A DNA stretch of 64,000 nucleotides from Escherichia coli (GTDB taxonomy: Bacteria; Pseudomonadota; Gammaproteobacteria; Enterobacterales; Enterobacteriaceae), in NCBI RefSeq assembly GCF_030013595.1, contig NZ_CP122768.1; one strand, 5' to 3'. The position numbers and the translations under genes are program-made. Below, one piece after another: positions 3,582 through 33,827 of the stretch (the stretch's first letter is position 1; each line of letters starts with the position of its first letter). The notes beneath the pieces are model-generated. The model was not told the origin of the DNA, made no database searches, and saw only the letters and a program-made list of their open reading frames with translations.

Positions 3582-5894
3582 CTATTGCATGACAAATTTC
3601 ACTGTCGCGATTTGCCCCACCTCATCCATCACCAGCAATTGATAATCGCCTTTATCCATCAAATGCAGGGTCACGTTGTGCCCGCGTTCAGTTAACGGTT
3701 CGCCATTCAGAAACCACCAGCGTTCACCTGCCCCTCCACTTGATTGCAACGGCAAAGTCGCTTCCGCTGCGCCCGGTAAACGTTTAATAATCGCGCCATC
3801 GCGAACACCTGTCAGCTGCAGTGGGAGTTGTGCATCGTGACCGTATGGCGGGCAAATTGTCGAGGCCGGTGGTAAGCGCACAGCGCGGCGTTCTGATGCG
3901 GGCAACCAGGGTTCCAGCGGTAGCGGCCAGACATTTATCATTTCTTGTCGCGCCTGAGGGCAATCAGCGGCAACACGTTTACCGTTTTCATCCAGCCAGA
4001 TGGGGAAACGAATGCCATTAATGCCTTCCTGCTCCGGCAGTAATAGAGTTGGCGGCTGACTCCCGTCCAGCAGCCAGGTTGCCAGGCGGCGGCGACAGTT
4101 ACCGTCACCTTCCGGCAAAGACTGTCCGCCTGGCCAGCAGATAACGCCACGAGTGACTGAGTTCGGGCGCGGGTCTTCCGGCAGATTCGCACTGCGCGAC
4201 AGTAAGATATTATTGACCTGATTCAACAATGGTACGGCACTGGCAAAGCCAAACTGACCAACAACGGGCGTGCCGTCCGGTCTGCCAGTCCAGATCCCAA
4301 TAACATAGCGAGCGTTAACCCCAATCGCCCAGGCATCACGATAGCCATAGCTGGTGCCCGTTTTCCATGCCAGTGGGGCAACGCGCGGCAAGGCACCATC
4401 CGGCAAGGGTTGCGCTTCATCAGCCATAATCCGGCGAATGATCCACGCAGCCCCCGACGACATTAAAGGCCGTTCAAGCAGCGGATCGTCAGGCTGTAAG
4501 CGCAATTTACCTGCCTTGCCGTGGCGAGCAAACGCGGTATAGGCCGCCGCCATATCCCCCAGTTTTGCACCAGCGCCGCCGAGAATGAGCGAAAGATTCG
4601 GTGCAGCACCGTTGGGCAAATATAACGGCAATCCAACATTGCGTAACTTTGCAGCAAACCGTTTCGGCCCATAGGCTTCCAGCACCTGCACAGCTGGTAA
4701 ATTCAGCGAGCGCACCAGCGCCTCGCTCATGCTGATCGGGCCATGAAAACCGCTATCAAAGTTACCTGGTCGATAATCACCGGTGCGCCGGGGGACGTCT
4801 TGCAGCAGTGATGCCGGGTGGATCAATCCTTCATCCAGCGCCAGAGCGTAAACAAACGGTTTGAGCACCGATCCTGGCGATCGGATCGCATTGACCATAT
4901 CAACATGACCAAAGCGTGAATCATCGTTGAGATCAACCGAACCCACCCAGCCGCGAACACGCATATCGGTATGATCAACCACGATCATCGCCAGTGAGCT
5001 GCGCGGTGGTAATCGTCCTTTCCAGTTTTGCGCCAGTTCTTCCAGACGTCGTTGAAGACCGGCATCCAGCGTCGTAACGATTTTGTCGCTTTTGCTTTTA
5101 CCGAGCATCATGCGCGAAAACAGCGGTGCCAGTTGCGGCATTTGTCGGGGTGCCAGCCAGATGGGTTCTTCCCTTGACTCTTTTACCTGCTCACGGGACC
5201 ACACACCTTGCGCAGCCATCCGTTCGAGCACTTTATTACGCGCGGCTTCGGCACGCTCCGGCCAACGATCCGGGCGAAGACGGCTGGGCGCTTGCGGTAA
5301 CACCGCCAGCATTGCCGCCTCGGAATAGCTCAAATTTGCAGGCGACTTCCCGAGATAAGCCCAGCTTGCCGCACCGATCCCCTGTAACGTACCGCCAAAC
5401 GGGGCGCGGTCAAGATACAAGGTCAGAATTTCACGCTTAGACAGATGCCACTCCAGTTGCAACGCGCGCCAGAGCTGGCGAATTTTGCCGCCAAATGTTT
5501 TGGGGTGAGGATCAAGCAAACGAGCAACCTGCATAGTGAGCGTGCTGCCACCGGAAATAACCCTTCCCGAAGTGAGATCTTGCCATGCTGCGCGCGCCAC
5601 CGAGAATGGATTCACCCCCGGATGCTTCCAGAACCAGCGATCTTCATAATTGATCAGCGCTTCAAGGTAACGTGGAGAAACATCTTCGATTGTTACCGGA
5701 TAACGCCAGATGCCTTCCGCATCGGCAAAGCGCCAGAGCGGCGTCCCATCCTGCGCCACAACCACTCGTGCGGGATTGACTTCATGCAGCGGTAGAGGCC
5801 AGAGTTTATCTGCTCCCCACGCTGCAAGAAAAAGGAGAAATGGCGCAGCTGCCAGCGTTATCCAGCAGCCGCGTTTGGTTAACAAGCGAGGCAT
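3582..5894 (-). CDS. pbpC: penicillin-binding protein 1C (peptidoglycan glycosyltransferase)
   Basis: ORF track 770 aa; start codon immediately follows yfhM stop (TAA-ATG adjacency at 5892-5897). Confidence 0.92.
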   Translation of the reverse strand: MPRLLTKRGCWITLAAAPFLLFLAAWGADKLWPLPLHEVNPARVVVAQDGTPLWRFADAEGIWRYPVTIEDVSPRYLEALINYEDRWFWKHPGVNPFSVARAAWQDLTSGRVISGGSTLTMQVARLLDPHPKTFGGKIRQLWRALQLEWHLSKREILTLYLDRAPFGGTLQGIGAASWAYLGKSPANLSYSEAAMLAVLPQAPSRLRPDRWPERAEAARNKVLERMAAQGVWSREQVKESREEPIWLAPRQMPQLAPLFSRMMLGKSKSDKIVTTLDAGLQRRLEELAQNWKGRLPPRSSLAMIVVDHTDMRVRGWVGSVDLNDDSRFGHVDMVNAIRSPGSVLKPFVYALALDEGLIHPASLLQDVPRRTGDYRPGNFDSGFHGPISMSEALVRSLNLPAVQVLEAYGPKRFAAKLRNVGLPLYLPNGAAPNLSLILGGAGAKLGDMAAAYTAFARHGKAGKLRLQPDDPLLERPLMSSGAAWIIRRIMADEAQPLPDGALPRVAPLAWKTGTSYGYRDAWAIGVNARYVIGIWTGRPDGTPVVGQFGFASAVPLLNQVNNILLSRSANLPEDPRPNSVTRGVICWPGGQSLPEGDGNCRRRLATWLLDGSQPPTLLLPEQEGINGIRFPIWLDENGKRVAADCPQARQEMINVWPLPLEPWLPASERRAVRLPPASTICPPYGHDAQLPLQLTGVRDGAIIKRLPGAAEATLPLQSSGGAGERWWFLNGEPLTERGHNVTLHLMDKGDYQLLVMDEVGQIATVKFVMQ

Positions 5895-8800
5895 TTACGG
5901 TCTGACAATCAGCAAATCTTCAGCCGCGCCGGTCGCCCGCCATTGGGGAACATACATTGATTCCACCATCGGTTGCGGTACCTGATACGTTCCCGGCGTC
6001 ACCGCCCGCGCCAGATACACCAGCGTTACCGGTTGGTATTCATCAACGGCAACCGCCGCCACAAAGCGATCATCACGGAACTCAATGTGCTTAATGCTCG
6101 CCTGCTGCATCTGGTTCAGTAAGTTTTGCACTTCGCCACCACTTTGCTCCAGGCTGGCGCTACCGTTCGCCAGATTCTGGTTTTCCAGTTCCAGACCCGC
6201 AGGCAGCAGATCCACGACTAACGCATCCGGCACGCTGTTACTGGCTTTTACCTGCAACCAGACCAGCACCAGATCGCCGCTACGTAACGAGTCCAGCGAT
6301 TTACTCTTACCATCAGTACCAAGAATATGACGCTCGATTTGCAGCACATTGTTCGCCGGTAAAGGTGCGGATTGCGGATAACCGCTGGCATCCACACGCA
6401 GCCATAACGGCTGATCGCCACTGTTGGTCGCCTGCAAGGTGGCAAGTTGATCGCTATTCAGATTGCTGTTTAGCGTTTTCTCGCCTGTCAGCGGCTCAGC
6501 TGAGAAAGAGGTTTGCGCCTGCCATTTACCCGGTAAATCCTGAATCGTACGGGCAGCCAGGAACAACGCGTTGCTTTCCTGGGTCGATAGCCAGCGTTCA
6601 CCAAATGCCTGCTGCGAAAGCGTGTTCAGCAAAGTGTTCTGCTCATCGGGTAGCAGTTTATTTTCTTCCAGCAAGGAGAGCATCAACGCGTTGTCGCGCA
6701 GTGGACTACCGTAATCACCCAGCCATATCCGCTCATCACTATTACGCGGCGTTTTCAGCGCCAACGCAATTGCTTCTTCACCACGCGTCGCATCACCCAT
6801 GGTTTTCAGCGCAACGCCAAGTTGCAGCAGCGGTAAACCAGAAGCGGCATCTGCACGATGCTCCCAGATTTCACGCAGCGCACCCAGTGGAGCTTTTTGC
6901 TGACGGGCCAGCACCAGCGCAGCGTAAGACTGTACGGCGAATTTACTGGCTTTGAGATTATCCGCGTACGGGATCGACATCATGCCCGGATCTTGTAAAT
7001 AGCGCAGCAGACGCTCATTTCCCCGGTTAATGACGTCTGTCGGCACGCTGTACCCCTGCTCACCTGCGCGGACCAGGAAATCCATCACGTAAGCCGTCAG
7101 CCAGTACTCTTCGTCACCGTTTTTATCCCACAGCGCAAAGCCGCCGTTATCACGTTGCATTTGCAGCAAACGGGAAACGCCGATATCGACCGATGCACGG
7201 CGTTTCTCATCACTGTCGCCTTTGATGCCCAACGCCTGCAGTTGGGCTGCGTTGGTATAAAGTGACGGGAACAGGCCGCTGGCGGTTTGCTCAAGACACC
7301 CGTACGGATACGCTTTTAACTCTTTGATATAACGTGCGATGTTCAGCGGTGGTTTGCCGCTCAACAACAATTGCCCTTCCAGCGTAACAGGTGAGAAGTT
7401 TTGCAATCCATCCGCCGGAATCGCCCATGTCTCACCAGGCTGTAACGCCGTACCGTAATTAACCGTTTGTGCCGGGAACGCCGGACGGACGCCGATTTTC
7501 CACTGCTTATGCTGATCGGCAACGGTTTCACCCGGTAACGCTAACCCGCTAATGGTGGCCTGAATTTCTCCATCGCCATAACCCGGCAATGCTCGCACCG
7601 GGATAAACAGCGTAGTACGCACACCTGGCGCTAATTCAACGGCTGCGGGTGAAACGCTGACCAGTTCAAGCAAACCACTGGCGGTCAGGGCAACGTTCAG
7701 TTTTTGCGGTTTATCGGTAAGATTAGTGATATCCAGCGTCAGACGCGAGGTATCGCCACTCGCCATAAAGCGCGGCATGTTCAGTTCAGCAATCACAGGT
7801 GCGGCAACTATCACTTTGCTTTCGTTGCTACCGAAGTCATCTACCGTCCAGGCTTGCGCCATGACGCGCAATTCACCGTTAAAATCGCCAATCGGCAGTG
7901 TAACCGAGCCTTCGCCCTGTTCGTTGAGCGTTACCGGCAGCGCCTGCTGCGCGACAATATTGACGTGATTGACCGGCGGTTTACCACCACGTTTCAGCTC
8001 ATCACCATCGCCACCAAAACGCAGAGCTGCCAGACGCCCCTGACCTTCAATGACCTGACCGTAAATATCGTAAATGTCTGCACCATAGCGTTTCTGACCA
8101 AAGAACGCCTGCCACGGATCGGGGGTAACGTAATCAGTAATATTCAGCACACCGCTATCAACGGCAGACACCAGCACATTCACCTGTTTTGGCATCTCAC
8201 CATTTTTATTGCTGGCTTTAATTTTCACGGTTAATGGCTGATTGGGGCGCATTTTGGTGGGGGTTTCCAGCGCCAGATCGAGACGACGGTTTTCATCGCC
8301 AAGCGGCAGATGCAACACCCCAACTGCGCGTTTTGGCGTCGCAGAGCGAGATTTATCGCCAGGACGTACCACCAGCGTACTTAAATACAAATCATGACGA
8401 TTCCAGGTTTTATCGACCGGAATCGTCAGATCCAGCCCTTGAGCCGGAACATCAATCTCTTGCCACCACAGCGGCCCTTCACTGGACTCGACCATCGCAT
8501 AACCTTTACCCGCCGTTGGCGCGGCAATATGCAACTTAATGGTATCACCAGGGCGATAACTGGCTTTATCCAGTTTCAGCGTGACACGGTCGGGTCGCAC
8601 GGCACCGCTCCCGTCGCTGTTGTCCTGCCAGCTATAGCCAGCCCAGAAACGCACACTACTGACCGCTTCATTCGGCGCTTTGACTTCCAGACGATAAGCG
8701 CCCCACTCTACCGGGAAACTGACTTTACCGGTTTCATCTGCCTGAAGATCCAGAGTTTGTTCATTTTCAATCAGATCTTTTTGATCAAACTGTGACTGCC

Positions 8801-10856
8801 AGCCTTCATCTTCTGACCAGTTCCAGTAGTAATCGCGGCGTTCGCGAATCAGGCGCACCTGCAAGCCCGACACGGCTTTTTTCACGCCTTGCGCATCGCT
8901 ATAAACGATGTCAAAAGCGGCGTTACTGCCTTCATCAACAATGGGCTGTTTCACCGTGCTGTCAGTGCGATAATCGTAAACCGATTTCGAGGCGAACTGC
9001 GGACGGATCCCCGGCAATGCATCGGCAGGCCAGATAGCCTGCTCAGCGCGGCGCGTCACCGGGCGACCGCCCGATTCCAACAAACTACCCTGGAAAATAA
9101 CCTGTAATGGGGAATGCGTTTCCTTCCACTGGCTTTCTGTAGAAACTTCGCCACGCCCTTTATCATCCAGCGTCAACTGAACTTCATCCAGCGTGCGGGA
9201 AAGATTTTCGGCAGCTATATCGCCGAATTCGAAACCAGGTAAGGCTGACACAGCTTCACGCAGTGGGCGCAGGAAAAGTTGCCCTTGCAAAGTATTACCA
9301 TTAGCAGGCGCACCATACAGGTAGTACCCCACCACGGAAAATCTCACTTCATCTTTCGGCGTTAGCGGGGTTTTCTCACCAGTCAGATTCAGCGCCATGC
9401 GCTCTGGCATAAAATCTTCGACGTGGAAATCCCACATCCGGTACTGGTTATCGCCCGTGTTAGCACGAATATGCCACATACCGGTTGCCGCATTGCTATC
9501 GAGTGGCCAGGTAAAGTGGTAGAGGCCATTCTCCGGCTGACTAACGACGCTCCTGAGTACCTGCCCGTCGGGTTTAATCACGTCTAACTTGATGGGTTGA
9601 TCGGGCAATGCTTTTCCATCTGCATCACGCAATAAACCATTGAGGATGACTGTTTCACCAGGGCGATAAAGATCGCGCGGGCCAAACATGAAAAACTGTT
9701 TGCTATAGCCTGGCGCGCCAGCAATGTTAAATTCTGCTAAGTCCAGCGCCGGAAGTTTTAAATCGAGTAGCGTTGTCTGACCGTCTTTACGCGCCAGCAG
9801 TAATGCCGCGTTTTTATCATTTTCCAGCTGCACATGCCCCTGAGCATCACTGGTTGCCTGAGTCAGAGTCTGCCCTTTCTCATTTAATAAAGAGACTTCT
9901 ATTCCTTGCTGGGCCGCGCCGTTTTCCAGACTTTGGGTAAAGATATCCAGACGATTGTGATAACGGTGAGCTGAAACGCCGATATCACTTAACGTAAACA
10001 GCGTCGCGGGATTACTGTAATCGTAACGTCCAGCCTGATTCATCACAGCCAGATACACGCCTGCCTGCTGAAGCGGTTTGATATCACCCAGCGGCAGCAA
10101 TAATTTTTCACGGGTGTTACGCGCAGGATTGAGATCAAACCGTCCGGTATAAACCAGATCCGCCATCTGCAGCAGTTTTTCAGACTGCCAGTTCGCCAGC
10201 GAATTGCGGTATTCCCATTGGCTAATGAATGCAGGCAGAGATTCGGGCTTCACACGGAAGAAGTTAACATCAACATTGTTAACGTTGAGCGCCATTACCG
10301 GCAGCCCTTCAATAACTTTACCAGGTAACAACGAACCACGGCTGGCAAAACCGACGCTGGGTTGGATATCGCGGGTAGTTATAGTTTTTTCGTAATCTTT
10401 ACTGAAGGTTGCGTTGTTGAGTGCTTTGACCTCCTTGCCAATAGTGACGATCAAATCACGTTTCGGTTCGAGGTGGCGTAAACGCAACTCTTTAAGATTA
10501 TCTGACAGCTCCCAGGCACCATCCACTTTGCCGCTTTTCTTATCGACGACATGGATAACGCGTGAGAAATCCTGATCCGGGTCGAGAGGGATGGAGAATG
10601 TCAGCACCAGCGTGGCTGCGCCATCAAGTTGAACTTCAGAGAGATCCAGCAATGTCAGCGCCTTACCGGCACTCTGTTGGGCCAGTTTTTGTCGCTCCGG
10701 CGCGGAAAGTTTTGCTGAACTCACGTTTTCTGAAGAGGCCGCTTTAGTAACTTCAGAAGGCGCATCTTTTTTCACCGCTGTTGGCGCGTTATCGTTGTTG
10801 TCGCACCCTGCCAGCGCCAGCATTAGCATGCAGGCGGCTACGCGTAACTTTTTCAT
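5895..10856 (-). CDS. yfhM: alpha-2-macroglobulin family lipoprotein YfhM (ECAM)
   Basis: ORF track 1653 aa; lipoprotein signal MKKLRVAACMLMLALAGC; thioester motif CLEQ present; cotranscribed with pbpC. Confidence 0.92.
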   Translation of the reverse strand: MKKLRVAACMLMLALAGCDNNDNAPTAVKKDAPSEVTKAASSENVSSAKLSAPERQKLAQQSAGKALTLLDLSEVQLDGAATLVLTFSIPLDPDQDFSRVIHVVDKKSGKVDGAWELSDNLKELRLRHLEPKRDLIVTIGKEVKALNNATFSKDYEKTITTRDIQPSVGFASRGSLLPGKVIEGLPVMALNVNNVDVNFFRVKPESLPAFISQWEYRNSLANWQSEKLLQMADLVYTGRFDLNPARNTREKLLLPLGDIKPLQQAGVYLAVMNQAGRYDYSNPATLFTLSDIGVSAHRYHNRLDIFTQSLENGAAQQGIEVSLLNEKGQTLTQATSDAQGHVQLENDKNAALLLARKDGQTTLLDLKLPALDLAEFNIAGAPGYSKQFFMFGPRDLYRPGETVILNGLLRDADGKALPDQPIKLDVIKPDGQVLRSVVSQPENGLYHFTWPLDSNAATGMWHIRANTGDNQYRMWDFHVEDFMPERMALNLTGEKTPLTPKDEVRFSVVGYYLYGAPANGNTLQGQLFLRPLREAVSALPGFEFGDIAAENLSRTLDEVQLTLDDKGRGEVSTESQWKETHSPLQVIFQGSLLESGGRPVTRRAEQAIWPADALPGIRPQFASKSVYDYRTDSTVKQPIVDEGSNAAFDIVYSDAQGVKKAVSGLQVRLIRERRDYYWNWSEDEGWQSQFDQKDLIENEQTLDLQADETGKVSFPVEWGAYRLEVKAPNEAVSSVRFWAGYSWQDNSDGSGAVRPDRVTLKLDKASYRPGDTIKLHIAAPTAGKGYAMVESSEGPLWWQEIDVPAQGLDLTIPVDKTWNRHDLYLSTLVVRPGDKSRSATPKRAVGVLHLPLGDENRRLDLALETPTKMRPNQPLTVKIKASNKNGEMPKQVNVLVSAVDSGVLNITDYVTPDPWQAFFGQKRYGADIYDIYGQVIEGQGRLAALRFGGDGDELKRGGKPPVNHVNIVAQQALPVTLNEQGEGSVTLPIGDFNGELRVMAQAWTVDDFGSNESKVIVAAPVIAELNMPRFMASGDTSRLTLDITNLTDKPQKLNVALTASGLLELVSVSPAAVELAPGVRTTLFIPVRALPGYGDGEIQATISGLALPGETVADQHKQWKIGVRPAFPAQTVNYGTALQPGETWAIPADGLQNFSPVTLEGQLLLSGKPPLNIARYIKELKAYPYGCLEQTASGLFPSLYTNAAQLQALGIKGDSDEKRRASVDIGVSRLLQMQRDNGGFALWDKNGDEEYWLTAYVMDFLVRAGEQGYSVPTDVINRGNERLLRYLQDPGMMSIPYADNLKASKFAVQSYAALVLARQQKAPLGALREIWEHRADAASGLPLLQLGVALKTMGDATRGEEAIALALKTPRNSDERIWLGDYGSPLRDNALMLSLLEENKLLPDEQNTLLNTLSQQAFGERWLSTQESNALFLAARTIQDLPGKWQAQTSFSAEPLTGEKTLNSNLNSDQLATLQATNSGDQPLWLRVDASGYPQSAPLPANNVLQIERHILGTDGKSKSLDSLRSGDLVLVWLQVKASNSVPDALVVDLLPAGLELENQNLANGSASLEQSGGEVQNLLNQMQQASIKHIEFRDDRFVAAVAVDEYQPVTLVYLARAVTPGTYQVPQPMVESMYVPQWRATGAAEDLLIVRP

Positions 10857-11062
10857 TTTTCATCCCTGCCACAATGGCCCGTTAGCAACGTCGAATAATT
10901 ATTATGCGTGAGAATTTACGTTATGTAATTCAGTATCACGCCCATACAATCCGAATTTTAGTGAGAATTGTGGCTCAGACAGCCAAATCAGTCTCTTTTG
11001 CTTGTCGCTTTTCACTAAACATCCGACAATTTAGCCTAACCCCGGCAAAAATGGAGATGCCT

Positions 11063-11908: not shown

Positions 11909-11924
11909 GCTTTTTACAGGCAAT

Positions 11925-11953
11925 AAAAAACCGCCGAATTTGGCGGTTTTTTA
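11925..11953 (+). terminator. rho-independent terminator downstream of sseA
   Basis: Hairpin ccgccgaa/ttTggcgg followed by T-tract (aaaaaaccgccgaatttggcggttttttatt). Confidence 0.7.
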
Positions 11954-12099
11954 TTGCTGGTCTGGTTCGCGGCCTTTCCAGCAGGTTGACTTGTGTTGTC
12001 GGAGCAACGCAGGTGCTTCACAGCAAAGCAATACTCGCCAGTAACTCTCTTTTTGTCAAGCGAAAGAGAGTAATCATTGTTTATTTAGCGTATTATCGA

Positions 12100-12405
12100 C
12101 ACCGGCCCTTTCCGCCGTCTCGCAAACGGGCGCTGGCTTAAGGAAAGGATGTTCCATGGCCGTAAATGCAGGTGTTTCACAGCGCTTGCTATCGCGGCAA
12201 TATCGCCAGTGGTGCTGTCGTGATGCGGTCTTCGCATGGACCGCACAATGAAGATACGGTGCTTTTGTATCGTACTTATTGTTTCTGGTGCGCTGTTAAG
12301 CGAGGTAAATAATAACCGGAGTCTCTCCGGTAACAATTTACTGGTGGTTAACAAACTTCAGAGCAGCAAGTAAGCCCGAATGCCGCCCTTTGGGGCGGCA
12401 TATTT
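12100..12405 (+). ncRNA. ryfA: ryfA-type small RNA / timP mRNA, copy 1 (5' end not determined)
   Basis: Location between sseA and sseB where RyfA maps in E. coli; ends at hairpin gccgccc-tttg-gggcggc plus atatttt; contains small hydrophobic ORF. Confidence 0.45.
12236..12373 (+). CDS. timP: small hydrophobic protein, TimP-like type I toxin candidate (MDRTMKIRCFCIVLIVSGALLSEVNNNRSLSGNNLLVVNKLQSSK; may start at second Met)
   Basis: Own translation; ORF below the 60-aa track cutoff; hydrophobic TM-like core IRCFCIVLIVSGALL; position inside ryfA. Confidence 0.5.
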   Translation: MDRTMKIRCFCIVLIVSGALLSEVNNNRSLSGNNLLVVNKLQSSK

Positions 12406-12488
12406 TAGATTATCCGATGCTGTTTAAAGTCACGCAAAAAACCACCCCAGCGACGTTCATAGAATGGCGCAATATGTTCGGTAATAAA
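12395..12488 (-). pseudogene. duplicated 3'-terminal fragment of sseB (~30 codons) carried in repeat unit A
   Basis: Sequence ttagattatccgatgctgtttaaagtcacgcaaaaaaccaccccagcgacgttcatagaatggcgcaatatgttcggtaataaa is identical to the 3' end of sseB at 13083-13166. Confidence 0.8.
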
Positions 12489-12779
12489 ATAACCTAGCTT
12501 ATTAGTCCGAATTCAGACAAATATAAACAATTTTCGCTTAATATTAAAAATACTAACCAATAAAAGATATTACTTGAACATGTAATTTCACTTTCTTTAA
12601 ACAACAAAAAACCGCCAAAATCAGGCGGTTATTTGTTGCTGGTCTGGTTCGCGGCCTTTCCAGCAGATTGTATTACCGTAGTAATGCAAGCGCGTCTCAG
12701 CGGACACAATACTCGCCAGTAACTCTCTTTTTGTCAAGTAAAAGAGAGTTATTATTGTTCTGTTAGTGTATTATCCACT

Positions 12780-13085
12780 GCGGACCTTTCCGCCGTCTCG
12801 CAAGCGGGCGCTGGCTTAAGGAAAGGATGTTCCGCGACCGTTAGAGCAAGCGCGTCTCAGCGCTTGCTATCGCGGCAATATCGCCAGTGGTGCTGTCGTG
12901 ATGCGGTCTTCGCATGGACCGCACAATGAAGATACGGTGCTTTTGTATCGTACTTATTGTTTCTGGTGCGCTGTTAAGCGAGGTAAATAATAACCGGAGT
13001 CTCTCCGGTAACAATTTACTGGTGGTTAACAAACTTCAGAGCAGCAAGTAAGCCCGAATGCCGCCCTTTGGGGCGGCATATTTTA
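12780..13085 (+). ncRNA. ryfA: ryfA-type small RNA / timP mRNA, copy 2 (5' end not determined)
   Basis: Duplicate of copy 1; terminator hairpin 13060-13077 and T-tract overlap the sseB stop codon. Confidence 0.45.
12914..13051 (+). CDS. timP: small hydrophobic protein, TimP-like type I toxin candidate, copy 2 (identical 45-aa translation)
   Basis: Own translation of atggaccgcacaatgaagatacggtgcttttgtatcgta...agcagcaagtaa. Confidence 0.5.
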   Translation: MDRTMKIRCFCIVLIVSGALLSEVNNNRSLSGNNLLVVNKLQSSK

Positions 13086-13859
13086 GATTATCCGATGCTG
13101 TTTAAAGTCACGCAAAAAACCACCCCAGCGACGTTCATAGAATGGCGCAATATGTTCGGTAATAAAGTGGCTAATTCCTTTTTCCCCTTTTTTCACCTGA
13201 CAAATATCGATGGGTTCATCGCCAGGTAATGTATCGGTCGCTACACTTCCTGCCGCCTGAATAATTTCTTCGATATCACCATCGGCTTCAATGCCAATAA
13301 GTAAATTAGGCTGTGCCTCTTCGTTCTCTTTAATTGAACAAATAAAAGCACGCTTCACCGGCTTAATAGTTTTAAATAAGGTGGTGAGTGAATCAATCAT
13401 TTGTGCTGGTGGCTCTGCAACTTCCGATAATATCAGCGATTCACCGCCTTCCAGTACTTCCTGGCTGCTCAGCGGATTTCCTTCTTCACCAATCAGCAAA
13501 CTGATTTCACGCGGCATAAATTCTTTACCGGTTGGCAGTTTGGCATTAAGGAAGAGCGTTTCGCCAAGGGTCATCTCAAACAATGTGCGAACGGGCATTA
13601 CGACAAATGCCTGTTCGTCTTCAACCGCCTGTTGAAGTGCTTCTAACGAGGTGAAAAAAGGAATGACGCTGGTGCCGTCTTCTTTTTCCCAGTGCTGTAA
13701 ATCAAGCGCGCTATCTTCAACCACAGCCTCGCCCTTCGCCGCCGTACCAGGCACCCAGACGGTGGATTCCAGTAGCGTACGGAAAAAGGCCGGGCGGTGC
13801 GCCGGTTCGGTTGCTGCTTTTTCCAGCAGATCTTCAAGTTCGTTTTTTGTTTCGGACAT
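13083..13859 (-). CDS. sseB: SseB family protein (enhances serine sensitivity)
   Basis: ORF track 13083..13868; start trimmed to MSETKNELEDLL (258 aa). Confidence 0.9.
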   Translation of the reverse strand: MSETKNELEDLLEKAATEPAHRPAFFRTLLESTVWVPGTAAKGEAVVEDSALDLQHWEKEDGTSVIPFFTSLEALQQAVEDEQAFVVMPVRTLFEMTLGETLFLNAKLPTGKEFMPREISLLIGEEGNPLSSQEVLEGGESLILSEVAEPPAQMIDSLTTLFKTIKPVKRAFICSIKENEEAQPNLLIGIEADGDIEEIIQAAGSVATDTLPGDEPIDICQVKKGEKGISHFITEHIAPFYERRWGGFLRDFKQHRII

Positions 13860-32370: not shown

Positions 32371-32378
32371 GAAAGATG

Positions 32379-32396
32379 CCGGATGCGGCGTGAACT
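32379..32396. repeat. left half of a REP palindromic unit (gccggatgcggcgtgaac), split by the IS insertion
   Basis: Joined with 33828-33844 it reconstitutes GCCGGATGCGGCGTGAACGCCTTATCCGGCC, the E. coli REP consensus as I recall it. Confidence 0.85.
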
Positions 32397-32859
32397 GAAC
32401 TGCACCCCAAATGTTGGACATAATCTGACATCTGAAGGTGCAGTTTATGAAACATTCATTTGAAGTAAAACTTGCCGCTGTAAATCATTACCTGGCTGGT
32501 CATGCAGGCATCATTTCTACGGCAAAACTCTTTCAACTTTCTCACACCAGCCTCTCACACTGGATTAATCTTTTTCTTCTTCACGGTCCTCGTGCACTGG
32601 ATTGCAGACACAAGCGTAGCTATTCTCCTGAAGATAAACTTTGCGTGGTTCTTTATGCTCTCGGGCATTCTGAGTCTCTACCCCGGGTAGCTGCCCGGTT
32701 TAACATTCCCAGCCACAACACGGTTAAAAACTGGATAAAAGGCTACCGCAAATCTGGTAATGAGGCCTTTATCAGGCGCAGGAAGGAGAAAAGCATGACC
32801 CGTTCTGATGATACCCATGAAAACGAGGCAAACATGACGCCGGAAGAGATGAAGAATGA

Positions 32860-33827
<968 letters not shown>

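Follow-up and report, generated by a model that had tools for sequence, protein, structure and literature searches.

In this study we analyse the yfhM-pbpC gene pair of Escherichia coli within a window of 64,000 nucleotides (nt), by which we mean the whole stretch of DNA under analysis, taken from contig NZ_CP122768.1 of assembly GCF_030013595.1. Both genes lie on the minus strand. The first, yfhM (5895..10856 including the stop codon), encodes the 1653-amino-acid (aa) alpha-2-macroglobulin (A2M) lipoprotein ECAM, as identified from its open reading frame (ORF), translation, Pfam domains, alignment to K-12 and matches in the Protein Data Bank (PDB). The second, pbpC (3582..5894 including the stop codon), encodes the 770-aa penicillin-binding protein PBP1C, identified from its ORF, NCBIfam and Pfam families and alignment to K-12. 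A preliminary description of the window had placed the yfhM stop at 5895-5897 and the pbpC start at 5892-5894 without a spacer, and sequence, ORF list and RefSeq annotation all agree with it. On the minus strand the text (window 5960-5820) reads ...GAT TTG CTG ATT GTC AGA CCG TAA ATG CCT CGC TTG TTA ACC..., with the stop TAA at 5897-5895 and the start ATG at 5894-5892. The stop-start junction TAA-ATG thus occupies 5892..5897 with a spacer of 0 nt, and the two genes necessarily share one reading frame.

The same abutment is annotated by RefSeq in K-12 MG1655 (pbpC, 2645013-2647325; yfhM, 2647326-2652287) and in strain HCP5S3_I2, which is 100% identical to the window over the junction region and over the surrounding 7.7 kb. 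Of 5426 complete E. coli genomes, 5423 contain at least 80% of this 7.7-kb region, and in each case it is chromosomal. The K-12 pair (b2520 and b2519) matches the window in genes, order, strand relation, TAA-ATG abutment and the flanking genes sseA and ndk; one difference is that the whole segment here lies approximately 26 kb from an IS1397-associated rearrangement breakpoint.

YfhM had been described as a thioester-containing A2M lipoprotein, and its sequence bears this out. It aligns with K-12 YfhM at equal length and without gaps, frameshift or internal stop (1627/1653 residues identical, 98%; 26 substitutions), and finds full-length matches in the solved ECAM structures 4rtd, 4ziq and 5a42 (3600+ bits), as well as in the Salmonella structure 4u48. 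The Pfam families bMG1, A2M_bMG2, bMG3, MG2, bMG5, bMG6, A2M_BRD, A2M, TED_complement, CUB_A2MG and bMG10 are all present above their cut-offs. The signal peptide MKKLRVAACMLMLALAG (10803..10856 including the codon of the following cysteine, minus strand) runs into the lipobox LAGC (residues 15-18; 10803-10814), whose Cys18 is followed by Asp at position +2. Asp at this position of lipoproteins is an inner-membrane retention signal. The bait-region domain (PF07703) spans residues 759-905 (8142..8582), and the thioester motif CLEQ, found in a single copy at residues 1187-1190 (7287..7298), aligns with an identical CLEQ in K-12. YfhM therefore combines all the sequence features of a type I bacterial A2M, namely a lipobox cysteine, the domain series, CxEQ and a characterised close relative, and is, as predicted from these features, a periplasmic A2M that is anchored in the inner membrane by lipid-modified Cys18 and carries a bait region and a CLEQ thioester. 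For K-12 ECAM, formation of the thioester and trapping of the proteases that cut its bait region have been established (PMC3328433, PMC4498604). At the RNA level, yfhM codons 5-25 in the signal-peptide coding region (window ~10782-10844, minus strand) fold stably, with -25.8 kcal/mol, the second of 47 genes.

The identity of the downstream product as PBP1C, also given in the preliminary description, stands. PbpC is identical to its K-12 counterpart at 758 of 770 residues (98%; equal length, no gaps, 12 substitutions) and scores well above the cut-offs of the NCBIfam equivalog NF008414 (1561.5 bits; cut-off, 1121) and of TIGR02073 (912.5 bits; cut-off, 494.2). Its Pfam domains are Transgly (E = 3e-51), Transpeptidase (E = 2e-12) and, at residues 687-767, BiPBP_C (PF06832; E = 2e-17), the C-terminal domain that separates PBP1C from PBP1A and PBP1B. 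The GT51 glycosyltransferase motif EDxxFxxHxG occurs as EDRWFWKHPG (residues 84-93; 5616-5645) and is followed by GGSTLTMQ at residue 115, while SxxK is represented by SVLK at residue 342 (4860-4871), SxN by SLN at residue 396 (4701-4709) and KTG by the exact motif at residue 511 (4356-4364), all on the minus strand. PbpC is thus a class A penicillin-binding protein, PBP1C, with an N-terminal membrane anchor and the extra BiPBP_C domain, and its enzymatic activity is predicted from these motifs and domains. PBP1C is known as a peptidoglycan glycosyltransferase without a known laboratory role that does not substitute for PBP1A and PBP1B (PMC7554673), and its first reported phenotype is that overproduction supports LdtD-dependent labelling (PMC6131605). 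In a deep E. coli proteome table PbpC has zero values, which fits low expression and decides nothing. The best 120 matches of a protein homologue search with PbpC consist of near-identical Citrobacter and E. coli clusters only, and its diversity was therefore taken from a scan of contigs (see below). The representative of the E. coli PbpC cluster of 10805 sequences (P0001) is 758 aa long, with 98% coverage of the 770-aa query, which indicates that at least some deposited PbpC gene calls differ in extent from the RefSeq call.

The yfhM-pbpC locus is an ordinary, annotated E. coli operon, and the pairing of A2M with PBP1C is already known because it is established in the literature (PMC3328433, PMC4498604, PMC7554673, PMC3735191), as the preliminary description had said. 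Type I bacterial A2Ms, which carry a lipobox and CxEQ, are often encoded beside pbpC (PMC3328433, PMC4498604, PMC3735191), and yfhM-pbpC has been called an operon (PMC4498604). The hypothesis that a protease trap acts together with cell wall repair goes back to Budd et al. 2004, as relayed in PMC3328433, PMC4498604 and PMC3735191. With this type I class (Budd et al. 2004; Salmonella Sa-A2M, PDB 4u48) the window shares the lipobox, CxEQ, the bait region and a pbpC gene immediately downstream, whereas a spacing of exactly 0 nt is confined to Escherichia, Citrobacter and Salmonella. The type II A2Ms (MagD of P. aeruginosa; YfaS of E. coli) have the same macroglobulin fold family and periplasmic location as YfhM; MagD, however, lacks the lipobox cysteine and CxEQ and is encoded in the six-gene operon magABCDEF without pbpC (PMC3735191), whereas the window protein has all three type I features. 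The term “defence-like,” which had been applied to the pair, holds only in the sense of the proposed antiprotease role: neither YfhM nor PbpC matched a PADLOC anti-phage model (PADLOC-DB, 0 families at E <= 0.01), and an anti-phage defence system is rejected on this ground.

Conservation of the stop-start junction

One genome per species was scanned for pbpC, which yielded 80 loci from 80 species. In 72 of them, pbpC is preceded on its own strand by an A2M gene. All 25 loci from Escherichia, Citrobacter and Salmonella have this arrangement with a spacing of 0 nt (TAA-ATG, or TAG-ATG in one), and so do all 15 loci from other Enterobacterales (Buttiauxella, Franconibacter, Mangrovibacter, Pantoea and one uncultured member) with a spacing of 3-13 nt, such that a spacing of 0-13 nt holds in 40/40 Enterobacterales loci. 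Among the 40 loci from Xanthomonadales, Methylococcaceae and other groups outside Enterobacterales, 32 carry the A2M gene (1 of the 8 loci without it has just 284 nt of upstream sequence) and the spacing is variable. In most of these 32, the pbpC frame opens tens to hundreds of nucleotides past the A2M stop, with the spacers of high-GC Xanthomonadales being lower bounds, as start codons cannot be fixed there. Adjacency of the A2M gene and pbpC is hence widespread, tight spacing is an Enterobacterales trait, and exact abutment belongs to one subclade.

A spacing of 0 nt is as such ordinary in operons: in the colinear half of the window, 5 of 22 same-strand neighbour pairs are spaced at -4, -1, -4, +1 and 0. 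What goes beyond chance is its conservation, since the 0-nt junction is invariant in 25/25 Escherichia, Citrobacter and Salmonella species although pbpC codons 2-6 differ freely among them. This stretch of codons contains no insertions or deletions (indels), and the exact value of 0 nt may thus partly reflect an absence of indels.

Several individual loci depart from the common arrangement. In two Lysobacter spp. (L054, 1498-4001; L066, 1598-4001), approximately 2.4-2.5 kb with long ORFs lie between the A2M gene and pbpC, and gaps of 0.5-0.9 kb separate the two genes in several other Xanthomonadales loci. One locus labelled Bacillus subtilis SK7B5 (L070; JAHREJ010000001.1) equals that of Stenotrophomonas maltophilia (L072) in A2M-pbpC identity and junction coordinates, and its assembly is probably contaminated or mislabelled. 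E. coli NCTC9100 (L086; NZ_LR134239.1, 3501-3720) is among the very few complete E. coli genomes with yfhM but without pbpC: a natural deletion has removed pbpC and ndk, rlmN follows yfhM, and homology to the junction stops at pbpC position +19, just short of the hairpin described below.

Initiation at the pbpC start and a hairpin beyond it

The preliminary description took the abutment to imply translational coupling. This is a reasonable reading that gains strength from the permissive spacing, its retention at 0-13 nt throughout the Enterobacterales loci and the lack of a Shine-Dalgarno sequence before pbpC, and we keep it at the level of a mechanism that we infer. The last 22 nt of yfhM before the pbpC ATG (5895..5916, minus strand) contain no Shine-Dalgarno sequence, as judged from duplex energies with the 3' end of 16S rRNA: the best duplex has +0.4 kcal/mol for pbpC, compared with -6.0 for yfhM, -7.1 for ndk and -5.9 for rlmN, and the 22 nt upstream of pbpC pair more weakly than 95% of the 22-nt windows inside yfhM. 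Strict coupling was seen in 4/5 native overlapping E. coli gene pairs tested (PMC6728339), and reinitiation in native pairs is sensitive to distance, with an additional 2 nt costing 5-70% and 14 nt costing 40-80%, and 38 nt nearly abolishing it (PMC10666635). Known termination-reinitiation pairs such as hyfH-hyfI and menD-menH (Huber et al. 2019, 2023) resemble yfhM-pbpC in being codirected with stop and start a few nucleotides apart. They differ in that the commonest spacings among coupled pairs are -4 (ATGA) and -1 (TAATG) rather than 0, and in that most of the tested pairs carry an intragenic Shine-Dalgarno sequence, which pbpC lacks. Among gene pairs with tight spacing, those encoding subunits of complexes are enriched.

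A consensus scan of the coding strand near the junction, which is weak evidence, gave no promoter- or terminator-like site. The divergent intergenic region between sseA and yfhM (206 nt) holds a sigma-70-like match, ATTACA-17-CATAAT (9/12 positions; 10901..10929, minus strand), which is a match to the consensus only, in a scan that gives as many such sites in shuffled sequence. The supplementary data examined from two Term-seq papers list no 3' end for either yfhM or pbpC, which low expression could explain.

Just inside pbpC we observe a conserved RNA hairpin, CGCGGCUGCUGG-AUAACG-CUGGCAGCUGCG, at nt +22..+51 of the gene (5844..5873, minus strand), identified by folding and comparative analysis. 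Its stem, with arms at 5873-5862 and 5855-5844, is perfect and GC-rich, with 11-12 bp and -20 to -21 kcal/mol. Across 26 species, 94% of cells are paired and compensatory double changes occur in 6/11 pairs, values that are reached in 0-2 of 500 shuffles, although such shuffle controls are not probabilities, since the species are related. In E. albertii, two Citrobacter groups and Salmonella, for example, the U-A pair at columns 88/105 has become G-C, G-U or C-G. Uninterrupted stems of 8-12 bp (as many as 14 pairs when the full fold is counted) occur at +18..+24 in Buttiauxella, Franconibacter and Pantoea, with other arm sequences that encode other residues, while the stem of Mangrovibacter lies at +38; overall, the stem position is +18..+24 in 30/35 Enterobacterales loci with a detectable stem. 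When the whole 2.3-kb pbpC gene was scanned for perfect hairpins in 39 species, the hairpin at +22 stood out as far better conserved than any other: it was found in 28/39, and that at the next position in 11/39. The region around the junction (window 5600-6100) has no Rfam match at E <= 1.

Stem-loops early in a coding sequence can activate initiation, as described for the translation-activating stem-loop (TASL) of fepA, a proposed roadblock that would bring the 30S subunit into position (PMC11979758, PMC7534054). The fepA TASL (Jagodnik, Chiaruttini and Guillier 2017) is predicted at +17..+47, and both it and the pbpC hairpin at +22..+51 have their 5' edge approximately 20 nt past the start codon, just outside the footprint of an initiating ribosome. 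The pbpC hairpin fits a TASL in position (~17-25 nt past the start) and in conserving structure over sequence, and is a candidate only. The two also differ: the pbpC stem is perfect, GC-rich, 11-12 bp long and near -20 kcal/mol, whereas the fepA fold is imperfect with approximately -12 kcal/mol, and the pbpC hairpin follows an internal start that abuts a stop and has no Shine-Dalgarno sequence, whereas the fepA TASL follows a 5' untranslated region. The hairpin may accordingly be either a TASL-like ribosome positioner or an attenuator.

Taken together, we lean towards the view that PBP1C of the chromosomal yfhM-pbpC operon of E. coli is synthesised mostly by termination-reinitiation at TAA-ATG, the best-supported mechanism that we can infer for this species. 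A promoter in the gap between sseA and yfhM would give a single mRNA for both genes, and ribosomes finishing YfhM at the TAA would re-initiate on the adjacent ATG to make most of the PBP1C, at a lower rate than YfhM. The hairpin, whose 5' edge lies immediately outside the stretch covered by a ribosome at the ATG, may help to hold that ribosome on a start without a Shine-Dalgarno sequence. Reinitiation at the junction would confine PBP1C production to the times and places of YfhM production, and the hypothesised biological logic is that a protease trap and glycan-strand repair would be deployed together when the outer membrane is breached.

A number of observations weigh against this view or against the part given to the hairpin in it. 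Removal of the Shine-Dalgarno sequence lowered reinitiation in 4/5 tested E. coli pairs (PMC6728339), and a junction without one may thus reinitiate poorly. Outside Enterobacterales, the usual opening of the pbpC frame tens to hundreds of nucleotides past the A2M stop implies that tight coupling is not required for the A2M-PBP1C partnership, and an in vitro RpoE-holoenzyme peak inside yfhM leaves room for a pbpC-proximal promoter. The hairpin is rejected as an outlier of stability: for codons 5-25, pbpC takes 7th place among 47 genes, and 10% of the 63-nt sliding windows in the operon fold as well as it does. Synonymous recodings of the hairpin region fold at about -14 to -24 kcal/mol with a median z of only -1.65; the native region is more stable than its recodings in 37/41 species and falls below a z of -2 in 17/41, such that the idea of a pure by-product of the protein sequence is partly true. 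Sliding the hairpin partners by 3 nt still pairs approximately 70% of cells, because the arms have a 3-nt periodicity. Finally, a structure hiding the start codon is rejected as a conserved feature, since the enclosing stems are 66-79% paired across the 26 species with almost no covariation; in the window's own minimum-energy fold (110 nt around the junction), the stop-start lies between two stems (z = -2.9) that are not conserved outside Escherichia.

Other routes to PBP1C

The first alternative to reinitiation is that pbpC is translated independently, with the abutment being a matter of genome compaction. A free 30S subunit would then start de novo on an unstructured start without a Shine-Dalgarno sequence, perhaps helped by the +22 stem-loop as a roadblock of the fepA TASL type, and translation of yfhM would matter little. 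There is precedent in bioBF, the 1/5 native overlapping E. coli pairs that started de novo although its Shine-Dalgarno sequence is very weak (PMC6728339), and the TASL mechanism was itself described for de novo initiation (PMC11979758, PMC7534054), at a hairpin-to-start distance comparable to that in pbpC. The pbpC genes outside Enterobacterales, tens to hundreds of nucleotides from the A2M stop, must also start alone. We nevertheless regard independent initiation in E. coli as less likely than coupling: pbpC, at +0.4 kcal/mol, has no Shine-Dalgarno sequence, its start lies between predicted stems in the window strain, and tight spacing has been retained in every one of the Enterobacterales loci.

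A second alternative, which can coexist with coupling, concerns the hairpin as an attenuator within the operon or as a stabiliser of the 3' end of a yfhM-only transcript. RNA polymerase would end or pause just inside pbpC unless a ribosome follows close behind, or a processed mRNA would end at the stem, and either would give far more YfhM than PBP1C. The arrangement of a GC-rich stem of 11-12 bp located 22 nt past the yfhM stop and followed by U-rich codons of the transmembrane helix is suggestive, as is the lack of quantification of PbpC in the deep proteome. In Pantoea, Mangrovibacter and Buttiauxella the stem is directly followed by a U run, with d'Aubenton-Carafa-type scores of +2 to +31. 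Such an immediate U tract is absent after the stem in the window, where the tail CCAUUUCU is poor (4 U in 8) and the score is -14; the window together with all Escherichia loci ranges from -4 to -20, on a score that is rough, as it uses modern energy parameters in a 1990 formula. The hairpin was also left unflagged by the terminator scan, and the data from the two Term-seq papers, with the proviso of low expression given above, list no 3' end for either gene. An intrinsic terminator at the hairpin is rejected for E. coli given its poor U tail and the unflagged scan, and a role of the hairpin as attenuator or stabiliser is unlikely.

It is also conceivable that yfhM contains a separate promoter, perhaps RpoE-dependent, from which pbpC is mainly expressed, the two genes being only loosely linked. 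Genomic SELEX placed a peak for the RpoE (sigma-24) holoenzyme inside yfhM at K-12 W3110 coordinate 2649866, listed as type D “pbpC < yfhM > sseA” (PMC5493296). This peak represents in vitro binding only and lies in the 5' part of a 5-kb gene, whereas the pattern GGAACTT-N15-17-TCNAA has 0 matches in the window and the 3' half of yfhM has no sigma-70-like site on the coding strand, which makes a dominant internal promoter improbable. Stop codon readthrough yielding a YfhM-PBP1C fusion as the functional unit, which the shared frame and the single intervening stop codon would allow, is excluded for practical purposes, as the stop (TAA, or TAG in one species) is retained in 25/25 species with the 0-nt junction, the genes of other Enterobacterales are in different frames or 3-13 nt apart, and, judging from known topology, YfhM is periplasmic whereas the single anchor helix of PBP1C can put the catalytic domains in the periplasm only if the N terminus starts out in the cytoplasm.

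Chromosomal setting and meaning of the junction

The window is colinear with most E. coli genomes over positions 1-32395 (rodZ...pbpC-yfhM...isc...hca...yphA), with 99.94% identity to HCP5S3_I2. A copy of the IS3-family element IS1397 starts at ~32396 after REP-like sequence (window ~32378-33750, plus strand), and past it lie ypfN, dapE, acrD, narQ, aegA, tktB, talA, maeB and eut, genes which we take to be located ~78 kb away and in the opposite orientation in K-12. The window thus contains either a breakpoint of an inversion associated with IS1397 or a join made in assembly, and in the former case yfhM-pbpC would lie inside the inverted segment. In addition, timP, a type I toxin gene, is present twice in the window. 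The two copies result from a tandem duplication of ~680 bp with ~90% identity (window ~11921-12488 and ~12602-13166) that comprises timP and a 3' fragment of sseB and leaves both copies in the interval from sseA to sseB, which in K-12 contains a single timP/ryfA together with timR.

Returning to the junction, it is tentatively possible that the abutment, the missing Shine-Dalgarno sequence and the hairpin act together in Enterobacterales as one small cis-regulatory device. Ribosomes that re-initiate would melt the hairpin and pbpC would be expressed, whereas if they fail the hairpin would form and the transcript would end or be protected. If true, such a device would fix a low ratio of PBP1C to ECAM, and PBP1C would be synthesised strictly in step with ECAM and at the same place in the membrane. 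It would also be a case of a coding-sequence hairpin serving termination-reinitiation, none of which is described for native bacterial gene pairs in the literature that we found.

The finding of the junction itself changes nothing, as the operon is annotated at textbook level and a partnership between A2M and PBP1C has been under discussion since 2004. To this known operon we add two small points, the conserved hairpin at +22 and the distribution of junction types among lineages. Both make the idea of coupling testable, and the hairpin in particular is a cheap and testable candidate for an RNA element within a coding sequence that serves reinitiation or attenuation. That adjacency is widespread while the tight junction is restricted to Enterobacterales argues for a link between the two proteins at the level of coexpression, with no requirement for obligatory cotranslational assembly. 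PBP1C is still without a clear physiological role, and its synthesis is probably slaved to the translation of ECAM. Phenotypes of pbpC are thus best looked for where yfhM is induced, and mutations in yfhM can be expected to have polar effects on pbpC.

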